Part shown: piece after piece, positions 24,883 to 26,851 of the stretch
Layout of the letters: every line of letters begins with the position of its first letter
Position numbering within the stretch: the first letter of the stretch is position 1
NCBI GenBank assembly: GCA_963765145.1
Contig: CAVXVG010000029.1
Coordinates: 224,001-288,000, forward strand
Length of the DNA stretch: 64,000 nucleotides
From: Parachlamydiales bacterium
GTDB lineage: Bacteria; Chlamydiota; Chlamydiia; Chlamydiales; JAJFMK01
Direction: 5' to 3'
The notes under the pieces: generated by a model
The model's database searches: none
Seen by the model: only the letters and a program-made list of their open reading frames with translations
Told to the model about the DNA's origin: nothing
Made by a program: the position numbers and the translations under genes

Positions 24883-25046
24883 AGTTAACGCGAATTATTG
24901 TAGCTTAGACTTTAGTCTGAGCATGTTTTTGCAGGTTTTAACCTGCAACCACTGCCACGGGTTAAAACCCGTGGTAACAAGCTCAGGCTAAAGCCTAAGC
25001 TACAATATTGAAAGTTAGCTACTTGCGCGTCGAATTCGCGTTAACT
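24883..25046. mobile_element. family RF ends enclosing a family RA REPIN (24899-25004)
   Basis: AGTTAACGCGAATT/AATTCGCGTTAACT outer IR; inner TGTAGCTTAGACTTTAGTCTGAGC...GCTACA. Confidence 0.85.
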
Positions 25047-26851
25047 TATTCCTTTGCGTAGGAACCGAGTTTACCTTGAGTGATGTCGATCAAAGCCTTT
25101 GACGGCATCACAATCGATTCGGTTTGCAGCCCGCAATTGAAGGCCACACGCTCCTCTTGCAACACTTTCTCGTCGAAATAGGTGTCGATATTGAGCAATT
25201 GGCCAAAAGGGGGAACACCTCCGATGACCAGCCCAAAGCGTTCTCGAATAATGATAGGGTCTTCAAATTCACATTTTTCACCCACAGCTTCTGATACAGC
25301 TTTCATATCGAGCTTTAGATGAGAAGGGATATTGAATTGGAAGTTTTTCTTACTGTTCTTGCCCCGCAAAATAATCGCTTTGACCCCTTCTTCCATTTTG
25401 GTGCCACGGACTCTTGCCGAGTCTTCCGATGTAGGCGTAGGGGCATGGAGTTTGTGATCAAACTGAACATCTCCTTCTTTGAGCAAGCGGATAATTTCGT
25501 TTCTGATCGTCTCTGCCCCAAAGAACAATTTAGCCCGTATTCTGTTTCCAGCGATTCTTTTCGGATCAGATGGGAAAAGGGAGGCTTCTCTGATGTTTTT
25601 CAGATCTAATAAGGTCATGGTCAATCTTTCAAGACCCATGCCAAAGCCACCATGTGGAGGCATCCCGAACTTGAAAATAGCCAGATAATCGCCGAAGTTT
25701 TTAGGGTCCATCCCTTTTTCAATAATACCCTCTACCATGCTATCGTAGGTATGTCTTCTGGCACCACCTGAGGTGATCTCGGTACCGCGGCAGATCAGGT
25801 CAAACGTTTCAGTTAATTCTGGTTTGTCCTGGCAATATTGAGAATAAAAAGGACGTTTTTCTCTTTTCCAATGGGTGATAAATAGGAAATCGGAACCATG
25901 TTCTTCGCGCGCCCAGCGGCAGAGTTCTTTTTCTGCAGCAGGAGATAAGTCAGGCTCTTCTCTGTCATCTACTCCTGATCTAGAGAAATAAAGTTCTTGG
26001 GCTTCGGCAAATGTTAGTCTTGGAAATGGCTTTGCAGGAAGGCGGATCGGATCCCATTTAATGGCTTTTAACTCTTTTGCAGCGGTTTTGTGAAGATGCT
26101 CCACCATAAAACGGAGTACACCCTCCTGAACATCTAAAACCTCTTCCCATCCTTGCCAAAGAGCCATTTCAAATTCAAATTGCTTTCCTTCAGAAAGATG
26201 GCGGGGTGTATGGCTAGGCTCTGCTCTAAAAAAGGGCATCAAGGCAAATACACGCTCGTTCACACCGACCATGACCTGTTTATAGAGCTGACTGCTTTGG
26301 GCTAGTGTTGCTGTATAGCCAAAATAGTCGACGTTAAAAAACTCTGCTCCCCCTTCAGACGAGGCTCCAATCATATTGGGGCCAAAGTATTCATACCCTT
26401 TTACCACGTCGTGCATGTAAAGACGGTAGGCATGGGCAAGTTCTGCCTGAACACGGAAAACAGCTTGGATTTTCTCGTTTCTTAAAGAAAGAGTCCGGTT
26501 GTCGAGGATATGTTCAAGATCGGAAGGGATTTCATGACGGGCATATTCGATGGGCGGTGCCTCTTGCACAGCTGAAAGGACTTCGACTTCAGGATCGGTA
26601 ATTTCTGCTCCCCCTTCAACTTGGGGAGCAAGAGCCACTTTTCCTGTAATTTTTAAAACCGACCCAATAGAAAGCTTTTTGACGATTTCTTGTAGCTGCT
26701 TTGAGGCCAATACAACCTGAGCAAAACCACTTGAATCTCGAACGATCAAAAAAGAAATTTTTCCTAAATCTCGAAGATTATGGAACCACCCGAAAAGTGT
26801 AATCTCTTTCCCCGCATGCTCTTTCAAATCGTTTGCAAAAATCCGTTTCAT
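25046..26851 (-). CDS. aspS: archaeal-type aspartyl-tRNA synthetase fused to a C-terminal YbaK/ProX deacylase domain
   Basis: OB fold, EGGAEFF, LAQSSQLYKQ, FRAE..RHL, PPHGGFGMGLERL, no GAD insert; C-terminal VKAII...GGVPPFG. Confidence 0.88.
   Translation of the reverse strand: MKRIFANDLKEHAGKEITLFGWFHNLRDLGKISFLIVRDSSGFAQVVLASKQLQEIVKKLSIGSVLKITGKVALAPQVEGGAEITDPEVEVLSAVQEAPPIEYARHEIPSDLEHILDNRTLSLRNEKIQAVFRVQAELAHAYRLYMHDVVKGYEYFGPNMIGASSEGGAEFFNVDYFGYTATLAQSSQLYKQVMVGVNERVFALMPFFRAEPSHTPRHLSEGKQFEFEMALWQGWEEVLDVQEGVLRFMVEHLHKTAAKELKAIKWDPIRLPAKPFPRLTFAEAQELYFSRSGVDDREEPDLSPAAEKELCRWAREEHGSDFLFITHWKREKRPFYSQYCQDKPELTETFDLICRGTEITSGGARRHTYDSMVEGIIEKGMDPKNFGDYLAIFKFGMPPHGGFGMGLERLTMTLLDLKNIREASLFPSDPKRIAGNRIRAKLFFGAETIRNEIIRLLKEGDVQFDHKLHAPTPTSEDSARVRGTKMEEGVKAIILRGKNSKKNFQFNIPSHLKLDMKAVSEAVGEKCEFEDPIIIRERFGLVIGGVPPFGQLLNIDTYFDEKVLQEERVAFNCGLQTESIVMPSKALIDITQGKLGSYAKE

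Follow-up and report, generated by a model that had tools for sequence, protein, structure and literature searches.

A single gene on the minus strand (25046..26851; 601 amino acids) of the window, a 64,000-nucleotide stretch of a Parachlamydiales genome, was found to encode an archaeal-type AspRS that carries a deacylase-like domain of the INS superfamily at its C-terminus. The domain has the fold and the conserved catalytic residues of its superfamily, and chlamydial genomes carrying the fusion are depleted in dtd. The best explanation, which is put forward tentatively from sequence comparison, is that the domain may be a tethered deacylase for D-Asp-tRNA(Asp).

Gene and domain architecture

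The initial annotation had described a GAD-less AspRS joined in frame to an extra C-terminal domain. This was borne out, as the minus-strand frame at 25046-26851 is open over all 601 residues and contains no internal stops, either between the two parts or elsewhere. All positions given below refer to the minus strand. An OB-fold anticodon-binding domain (residues 17-92, 26576..26803; Pfam PF01336 and alignments to 1n9w and 3nel) is followed by a class II catalytic domain without GAD insertion (residues 113-429, 25565..26515; tRNA-synt_2, Pfam E-value 8.6e-69). No Pfam match to a GAD domain was obtained in the 601-residue protein. A linker (residues 434-447, 25511..25552) leads to the YbaK/ProX-fold (tRNA_edit) domain (residues 448-601, 25049..25510), recognized by PF04073 and by its predicted structure. 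The tRNA_edit match covered residues 469-589 with an E-value of 1.9e-17 and 63.9 bits, compared to a Pfam cut-off of 25.5. The motifs first described, GVKAII (containing K491), GGVPPFG (G544-G550), QLYKQ and RHLSEGKQFEFEM, were all found.

A domain-architecture check, proposed at the outset, placed tRNA-synt_2 and tRNA_edit in one protein, and the identical three-domain architecture was shared over 100% of the query by all 120 listed homologs; the junction is thus not an assembly error. The linker span between its flanking motifs was identical in 111 of these 120 homologs, the search pattern having missed the other nine. Synthetase and domain occupied one open frame at 76 of 80 loci, and on this ground an assembly artefact was rejected. 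Of the remaining four loci, one was broken by frameshifts and three were free-standing domain genes. As a separate observation on the assembly, homopolymer frameshifts occur elsewhere in it (thrS).

Type and specificity of the synthetase part

The assignment to the archaeal type, also made in the initial annotation, was upheld by the absence of GAD and by the NCBIfam model PRK05159 (archaeal-type AspRS), which was passed with 456 bits at a cut-off of 353. TIGR00458 was slightly below its cut-off (358.9 against 368.4), neither of the two bacterial AspRS models of NCBIfam reached its cut-off, and both NCBIfam AsnRS models stayed below theirs (235 against 414 and 226 against 343 bits). The best solved relatives of residues 3-433 were AspRS2 from Thermus thermophilus (1n9w, 3kfu; E-value 6e-96) and the Thermococcus AspRS (3nel; 1e-82). 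These enzymes also consist of an OB fold and a catalytic domain without GAD, and they end where the extra 165 residues of the present protein start. The present protein further differs from both in having E226 instead of Asp, no loop Pro and an AsnRS alongside.

K191, R209, E226 and R365 were invariant in the 120 listed homologs. K191 and R365, aligned to 1n9w and 3nel, are taken here to be the Lys and Arg that bind the side-chain carboxylate of Asp. The fusion was the sole AspRS found in 45 of the 72 carrier genomes and must therefore charge Asp. A suggested alteration of specificity towards Asn gained no support from the invariance of K191 and R365, from the separate AsnRS or from the frequent role of the fusion as sole AspRS. 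The accompanying check for a second aspS or asnS located no other AspRS in this genome and a separate AsnRS elsewhere in it. AsnRS identity, or a switch to Asn, was rejected on the failed AsnRS models, the true AsnRS and the invariant K191 and R365.

E226 (26174..26176) lies in motif 2; most of the AspRSs compared have Asp at this position, and this clade has Glu. Most fused or adjacent AspRSs outside the clade retained the Asp; judged from these sequences, the D-to-E change is real but clade-specific, and it was rejected as a general cause of the fusion. The His of the anticodon-binding domain and the loop Pro are marks of a non-discriminating AspRS, the loop Pro being needed for tRNA(Asn) charging. 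The present protein has H24, at a column with N in 98 of the 120 listed homologs, and E79 at the loop position, where Pro was seen in 5 of the 120.

These residues bear on the idea that the domain polices the border between Asp and Asn, by clearing either Asn-tRNA(Asp) formed in a relaxed E226 pocket or Asp-tRNA(Asn) that a non-discriminating synthetase would produce. The Glu common to all 120 listed homologs, the NCBIfam family name (aspartate-tRNA(Asn) ligase), the presence of GatB in the genome and the polar pocket provided by N572 would all fit. The idea is nevertheless improbable, as the Asp is kept by most fused or adjacent AspRSs outside the clade, the loop Pro is rare, AsnRS is present and the dtd trend described below would be left unexplained. 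Furthermore, a single strong PF00749 match was found, so that GatCAB has another use. Glu mischarging is disfavoured, as neither Glu-tRNA(Asp) nor Glu-tRNA(Asn) was formed by bacterial AspRSs according to the available text of PMC6523644.

Fold and family placement of the C-terminal domain

When the domain was modelled by itself with AlphaFold, the pLDDT was 95.9. Compared with YbaK/ProX structures, this model gave Z-scores of 20.7 to 1wdv, 19.0 to 1dbu and 16.1 to 5vxb. A structure search returned eight INS-fold entries with Z-scores of 13-21, and the next row scored 2.9. The closest solved folds, with TM-scores of 0.78-0.83 to the domain model, were 1dbu, 2dxa, 2cx5 and 1wdv, which include YbaK, a Cys-tRNA(Pro) deacylase (1dbu, 2dxa), and ProXp-x (2cx5). 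DTD structures were absent from the fold matches, and PF02580 and PF04414 (DTD1/DTD2) had no match in the protein or the genome. In the full-length AlphaFold model, pLDDT values fell below 50 at residues 98-124, 153-225 and 423-444, and no geometry was taken from this model; it was unreliable in the catalytic core and uninformative on the reach between the two sites.

A conserved Lys, with its role, and a GXXXP loop are described for the INS superfamily in the accessible portion of PMC11286415. The domain has the YbaK/ProX fold, a PF04073 match above the cut-off, the conserved Lys (K491, 25379..25381) and the GXXXP loop (G544-P548, 25208..25222). H469, R482, G489, K491, G544, P547, P548 and the FNCG strand (residues 571-574, 25130..25141) were invariant in the 120 listed homologs, and K491 was present in 58 of 58 AspRS-linked domains. 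Mean conservation over the 120 listed homologs was 0.79 in the domain, between the 0.86 of the catalytic domain and the 0.67 of the OB fold. With its active site intact, the domain is predicted to act as an aminoacyl-tRNA deacylase, and built-in proofreading is plausible. A non-catalytic appendage, binding the tRNA end or stabilizing the dimer, would have parallels in the INS-fold domains of non-synthetase proteins such as SadB and Maqu_0641, the deacylase activity itself being a prediction from sequence. The invariance of the Lys, GXXXP, His and pocket residues and the existence of free-standing members of the same domain group make such a role very unlikely.

Regarding the family, the domain had initially been called a YbaK/ProX editing domain. 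The fold was correctly named, but the domain is not YbaK proper: the YbaK models TIGR00011 and PRK10670 were not passed (47.6 against 153 and 29 against 243 bits), and the YbaK references formed a separate clade from this domain in a quick tree (support 99). The columns R482, G489, P547, F549, F571, N572 and S579 were common to the AspRS-linked domains and YeaK/ProXp-ST1, where ST1-type pocket columns were set in this analysis from four references (YeaK and three YeaK homologs) and do not follow a published definition. Of these residues, F571 and N572 were absent from the YbaK and ProXp-ala references. YeaK/ProXp-ST1 of E. coli is a free-standing Ser/Thr-tRNA deacylase of the INS superfamily, whereas the present domain is fused to AspRS. 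The two share the Lys, GXXXP, His, Arg, G-x-K, PPF and FN columns at 21% overall identity, and the ST1 references differ from the present domain at Thr-Ser 474-475 and Gly550. The domain fell outside the four-member ST1 clade (SH-aLRT 99) in the quick tree, which had no bootstrap and lacked three INS reference rows that were not found by the profile.

An INS-fold editor within a class II synthetase is known from the INS domain of ProRS and from protist ProXp-ala-ProRS fusions, as covered in the available parts of PMC11295145 and PMC11286415; the latter also describes ProXp-7 for the eukaryotic MCP3 group. In comparison, the present fusion has AspRS as the partner, the domain in C-terminal position and a pocket that is not ProXp-ala-like. 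Editing of Ala-tRNA(Pro) or Cys-tRNA(Pro) in trans, on behalf of a ProRS without INS domain, was also considered. No other tRNA_edit domain was found in this genome, the ProRS of which lacks INS, and an INS-bearing ProRS-sized frame was seen in 0 of 13 fusion genomes compared to 5 of 28 others. Sixteen of the 28 non-fusion genomes, however, had no tRNA_edit domain at all, ProRS was the partner in none of 34 long proteins taken from the best 150 profile matches, and the pocket is unlike those of ProXp-ala and YbaK, which both lie elsewhere in the tree. This role is quite improbable.

Distribution, partners and origin

The fusion was found in 72 of 261 genomes of the chlamydial order, and its homologs include a named Parachlamydia protein. 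Among the 34 long proteins scanned for partners, AspRS was present in 21, eight archaeal-type and 13 bacterial-type (five with GAD and two full-length without GAD), and no other synthetase was the best match in any of the 34. On the sequences scanned, the domain is tied to AspRS across archaeal- and bacterial-type backbones. Thirty Patescibacteria loci included eight AspRS fusions and seven free genes immediately after aspS. The order aspS - domain - D-Ala-D-Ala carboxypeptidase was recurrent, the peptidase being directly next in 10 of the 30 loci, and in two more Patescibacteria loci the domain was fused to this downstream neighbour; adjacency alone can thus create fusions. No conserved neighbourhood of the fusion was found in chlamydiae (18 context groups among 42 loci). 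A recent transfer was not evident from the GC content, 44.9% for the gene and 43.7% for the genome. The gene was probably acquired by chlamydiae from Patescibacteria, often displacing a bacterial-type AspRS.

Depletion of dtd in fusion carriers

The depletion of dtd in chlamydial fusion carriers is a new observation of this analysis. A dtd match was present in 25 of 72 carriers compared to 115 of 189 other genomes, and in 16 of 46 genera with the fusion compared to 78 of 101 without. The family-stratified odds ratio was 0.10 (p 3e-4) for genera, which within one family are not independent. The dtd share was lower with the fusion in eight of 11 families, with three ties and no family showing the opposite. 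The depletion held within families and for genomes no larger than 2.6 Mb; in the class of 1.5-2.0 Mb, dtd was found in 5 of 29 with the fusion and 54 of 70 without. Above 2.6 Mb no difference was seen (14 of 18 against 17 of 19). Every fusion carrier has dtd in the three genera in which both states occur. Where the fusion is the sole AspRS, dtd was present in 11 of 45 genomes; in those that retain a GAD AspRS it was present in 14 of 27.

As controls, an unrelated gene was present in 70 of 72 fusion genomes (235 of 260 overall, not matched for prevalence), and all seven non-fusion genomes with another free-standing tRNA_edit gene retained dtd. In three of six relatives dtd sits between two genes that in this genome are separated by about 300 bp without any remnant of dtd; DTD2 was likewise not found in this genome. 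As 74 of the 189 non-carriers also had no dtd match, dtd is dispensable anyway. The trend was not replicated in 301 Patescibacteria genomes (6 of 41 with the domain against 21 of 260 without, p 0.23), a set in which dtd is rare and the genomes have no completeness estimate. None of 10 hand-picked Patescibacteria carriers had dtd, which at a base rate of 9% means little. The link to dtd loss was not foreseen in the initial annotation.

Proposed substrate

Fusion-bearing chlamydiae tend to lack DTD, and D-aspartate would therefore be the likely amino acid removed by the domain. Formation of D-Asp-tRNA(Asp) by E. coli AspRS, its hydrolysis by DTD1 and the poor growth of a dtd knockout on D-Asp are reported in the text available from PMC1807948. 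In the proposed mechanism, the synthetase part would mischarge tRNA(Asp) with D-aspartate, and the domain would act on the product of its own partner, in cis or just after release. Hydrolysis would follow the INS-superfamily mechanism, with K491 and the GXXXP loop holding the tRNA end. With D-Asp as the putative substrate, the task would overlap with that of DTD1/DTD2, whose distribution in chlamydiae is complementary and which were not found in this genome. A reach to other D-aminoacyl-tRNAs or to Gly-tRNA(Ala) would make the loss of dtd cheaper still.

Several findings speak against D-Asp. The dtd trend was not reproduced in Patescibacteria, a dtd match is kept by the 25 carriers mentioned above, the pocket columns match those of the Ser/Thr editor ProXp-ST1, gene adjacency could account for the fusions, and no D-amino acid is among the INS-family substrates given in the accessible sections of two reviews (PMC11295145, PMC11286415). 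Aspartate racemase was not enriched (5 of 72 carriers against 10 of 189 others) and was not found in this genome, so no internal source of D-Asp was shown.

An editor similar to ProXp-ST1, which would work in trans and clear small or hydroxyl amino acids (Ser, Thr and possibly Gly) from many different tRNAs, is possible, albeit rather doubtful. The AspRS link would then stem from fusion of neighbouring genes in Patescibacteria, and the dtd trend from a Gly-tRNA(Ala) overlap, ecology or shared ancestry. The columns shared with YeaK and its three homologs, mostly missing in YbaK and ProXp-ala, point in this direction, as does the recurrent gene order in Patescibacteria; the strongest plasmid match by E-value (6e-11) was a YeaK homolog. 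ProXp-ST1 has a broad tRNA range, and Gly-tRNA(Ala) is also cleared by DTD, according to the available portion of PMC11295145. Opposed to this are the low identity to YeaK, the position outside the ST1 clade, the persistence of the aspS link across both backbones with no conserved chlamydial neighbourhood, and dtd loss, which a Ser/Thr editor does not predict. Besides, editing motifs are already present in the ThrRS and the AlaRS of this genome, which also contains a free AlaX-like gene; a loss of ThrRS/AlaRS editing was not seen. Returning to D-Asp, the wider proposal that an INS-fold domain turned into a D-aminoacyl-tRNA deacylase within AspRS, as a chiral proofreader unrelated to the DTDs that let chlamydiae drop dtd, is speculative and on balance doubtful.

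Implications

Seven synthetase families with editing domains are listed in the text available from a 2024 review (PMC11295145), AspRS not among them, and INS-superfamily members other than ProRS are there called single-domain proteins. No description of the AspRS fusion was found in the open literature searched; the primary ProXp-ST1 paper and a 2020 chapter defining the INS clusters lay outside that search and may mention it. A conserved AspRS-borne editor, found in 72 of 261 genomes of the chlamydial order as well as in Patescibacteria, suggests a fidelity problem that has gone unrecognised, and the dtd pattern narrows the substrate question to one cheap test, D-Asp. If the D-Asp assignment is true, chiral proofreading would gain a new fold, and the protein would be the first AspRS shown to edit. 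If the substrates are Ser and Thr instead, an activity would be defined for a large unstudied group of the INS family in reduced genomes.

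Architecture of the fused gene

The gene under study (window 25046-26851, minus strand) was found to be a single frame of 601 codons. The initial annotation had described an aspartyl-tRNA synthetase (AspRS) joined in frame to an editing-type domain; this was borne out, and all motifs quoted there were found in the fusion protein. Domain searches placed an OB fold at aa 17-92, a class II D/K/N catalytic domain at aa 113-429 and a tRNA_edit domain at aa 469-589, and found no GAD domain in the 601-aa protein. The protein scored over the cut-off of the archaeal-type AspRS model PRK05159 (456 vs 353 bits) and below those of the AsnRS and bacterial AspRS models. 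The closest solved structures of the synthetase part, T. thermophilus AspRS2 and 3nel, both stop at residue 433. The three-domain layout was common to all 120 listed homologs (65-100% identity, query counted), the named organisms among which were Parachlamydia and other Chlamydiales. Since one frame spans synthetase and domain in 76 of 80 genome loci, sequencing error was ruled out as the source of the join.

Three other genes are interrupted, probably by assembly errors. The thrS of the source genome (L006:700-780) is split by a homopolymer frameshift at a T-run, a glycogen-synthase-like ORF (window 33735-34754) stops near an A/G run and seems cut short, and the AlaX-like gene in locus L192 is spread over two frames.

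Immediately past the stop codon of the fused gene lies a hairpin element of about 165 bp (window 24882-25046) whose terminal inverted repeat is 14 nt long and free of mismatches. Related copies of the inner part are numerous in the genome (117 blastn rows over both orientations); at the corresponding position of L064, the closest related locus, the element was not seen. It resembles a MITE or REP-like repeat.

The synthetase part

Four tRNA-synt_2 matches, the fusion gene included, were found in the source genome, which is 84.8% complete. One was confirmed as AsnRS by NCBIfam, and two are read from their sequences as LysRS and EpmA. To the question of a second aspS or asnS, raised by the initial annotation, the answer was a separate AsnRS and no GAD-type AspRS found in this incomplete genome. 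Within the order, GAD AspRS accompanies the fusion in 27 of 72 carrier genomes and is missing from 45 (including one with a fragment and one with a sub-threshold match, both scored absent); among the first 41 genomes, each of the 28 non-carriers has it.

K191 and R365, which we take to be Asp side-chain binding positions, are invariant among the 120 homologs, which suggests that the enzyme charges Asp. E226 of motif 2 is also invariant in these homologs, and most fused or adjacent AspRSs outside the chlamydial clade retain Asp there. A Pro in the OB-fold loop, presumably a mark of non-discriminating AspRS, is seen in 1n9w and in 5 of the 120 homologs. Given the AsnRS in the same genome, the fusion AspRS is probably discriminating. 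Control of the Asp/Asn border by the extra domain is considered unlikely. The ProRS of the source genome lacks an INS domain, as would fit editing of tRNA(Pro) by the fused domain on its behalf; this role appears quite improbable. The GlyRS of this genome (L008 and L010 hold the two synthetases) is a single 468-aa frame, presumably of the alpha2 type and not the bacterial alpha/beta form.

Fold, active site and relatives of the extra domain

The AlphaFold model of the domain alone had a pLDDT of 95.9 and matched INS-fold proteins only, with Z scores of 20.7 (1wdv), 19.0 (1dbu), 16.1 (5vxb) and 13.0 (ProRS INS); the first non-INS row had a Z of 2.9. All characterised INS-superfamily members are reported to use a Lys and a GXXXP loop (PMC11286415). 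The Lys (K491), the GXXXP loop, H469, R482 and FNCG are invariant in the domain of the 120 homologs. Counted over these close homologs, positions conserved to at least 98% numbered 40 of 154 in the domain; the catalytic domain had 144 of 321 and the OB fold 15 of 100. The domain is very probably an active deacylase of some kind; a non-catalytic role is highly improbable.

Model scores rejected YbaK proper. The 58 AspRS-linked domains share the R482, G489, P547, F549, F571, N572 and S579 columns with the Ser/Thr editor E. coli YeaK (ProXp-ST1) and three homologs chosen by likeness to it, but differ from them at 474-475 and 550; YeaK and the domain of the fusion protein are 21% identical. A quick tree (128 rows, SH-aLRT support only, ST2, ProXp-8 and ProXp-9 references not among the rows) placed the ST1 references in a clade of their own (support 99); another clade (support 99) joined the YbaK references to several proteins labelled YbaK/EbsC. 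Of the 15 chlamydial fused domains, 14 formed one clade (support 96) nested among Patescibacteria rows, deeper branching being without resolution. By pocket columns and tree placement, the fused domains make up a separate, ST1-like group, likely transferred from Patescibacteria to chlamydiae.

A divergent 581-aa fusion (L024, 48% identity) occurs in a 0.8-Mb genome, G017; its domain sits on a long branch outside the main chlamydial clade, through separate acquisition or fast decay. Another genome carries a second, partial domain copy (G134:C1:142530-142763) about 1.1 kb away from an intact fusion.

Association of the domain with AspRS

When 1.84 billion representatives were searched with a profile, 6120 matched, and 34 of the longer proteins among the best 150 were scanned for domains. 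AspRS was present on 21, of archaeal type in 8 and bacterial type in 13 (5 with GAD, 2 full-length without GAD, 6 fragments). The other 13 comprised 3 with tandem copies, 1 each with GmrSD, a zinc finger and a D-Ala-D-Ala carboxypeptidase, and 7 without another domain; none of these 34 had a non-AspRS synthetase as best match. Proteins P0251, P0269 and P0295 have two or three tandem tRNA_edit copies and no synthetase.

The 30 best loci in 301 Patescibacteria genomes included 8 AspRS fusions and 7 free genes immediately after aspS of either type. The carboxypeptidase (Peptidase_S11) lies directly downstream of the domain in 10 of the 30 and is fused to it in 2 more (loci L153, L162, L168-L173 and L175-L178; protein P0363); 9 of the carboxypeptidase-linked loci have aspS of either type upstream. 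The aspS link outlasts a change of AspRS backbone, yet adjacency by itself evidently gives fusions, so that the evidence cuts both ways. No conserved neighbourhood was found in chlamydiae (18 context groups among 42 loci).

Such adjacency, together with a pocket like that of the Ser/Thr editor, would suit an ST1-like editor acting in trans; the source genome, however, already has ThrRS and AlaRS with editing motifs and an AlaX-like gene. This explanation ranks second, somewhat less probable than the D-Asp reading below.

Distribution of dtd and proposed function

E. coli AspRS forms D-Asp-tRNA(Asp), which DTD hydrolyses, and knocking out dtd impairs growth on D-Asp (PMC1807948). The list of seven synthetases with editing in a 2024 review does not include AspRS (PMC11295145). 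Because of this documented AspRS error, carriers were examined for absence of dtd. Among the first 41 genomes, 2 of 13 carriers had the gene vs 21 of 28 non-carriers. The search was extended to 261 genomes of the order, most of the first 41 among them. The domain was matched in 74; removal of three (two weaker matches that were of a different kind, plus a short frame) and addition of one divergent fusion gave 72 carriers. dtd was depleted in these, with a match in 25 of 72 vs 115 of 189 non-carriers (Fisher p 2e-4). At genus level (258 of 261 genomes placed, three mixed genera left out) it was present in 16 of 46 genera with the fusion vs 78 of 101 without. The family-stratified odds ratio was 0.10 (p 3e-4), calculated without a species tree on kin that are not independent; in carriers dtd was rarer in 8 of 11 families, equally frequent in 3 and commoner in none. 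After exclusion of a dtd-poor family whose genomes are very small, dtd occurred in 0/9 carriers vs 13/35 non-carriers up to 1.5 Mb, 5/29 vs 54/70 at 1.5-2.0 Mb, 6/16 vs 30/36 at 2.0-2.6 Mb and 14/18 vs 17/19 above 2.6 Mb. Carriers with the fusion as only AspRS had dtd in 11 of 45 cases vs 14 of 27 with GAD AspRS (p 0.02, confounded by size). As controls, an unrelated but near-universal gene was found in 70 of 72 carriers, and dtd was kept in all 7 non-carriers having another free tRNA_edit gene. Two genes flanking dtd in 3 of 6 relatives, presumably encoding a pseudouridine synthase and a KH-domain protein, are separated by about 300 bp on contig C36 of the source genome, with no dtd remnant between them. 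DTD2 was not found in this genome at 84.8% completeness.

The domain is predicted, tentatively, to be a tethered D-Asp-tRNA(Asp) deacylase, ranked first because no other reading explains the AspRS tie together with the dtd pattern. The synthetase part would charge L-Asp and now and then D-Asp; the tethered domain would grip the tRNA end via K491 and the GXXXP loop and hydrolyse the wrong ester. The full-length AlphaFold model was uninformative on the reach of the tRNA end to the domain. Several observations count against a D-Asp substrate, among them the Ser/Thr-like pocket. dtd depletion was not replicated in Patescibacteria (6/41 with the domain vs 21/260, p 0.23), where dtd is rare and completeness is not established. 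All carriers in the three mixed genera retain dtd, and 74 non-carriers gave no dtd match. Aspartate racemase was neither enriched in carriers (5/72 vs 10/189) nor found in the source genome. The INS-superfamily substrates listed in the accessible parts of PMC11295145 and PMC11286415 include no D-amino acid. Gly-tRNA(Ala) is also a DTD substrate (PMC11295145), so the domain could overlap with DTD in its clearance.

The AspRS half and the INS-domain half are each of a known family. Their pairing was not found in the open literature; the primary ST1 paper, the 2020 INS-cluster chapter or supplements may mention it. The AspRS fusion is real, widespread and apparently unstudied, and the substrate hypothesis for its fused domain is directly testable.
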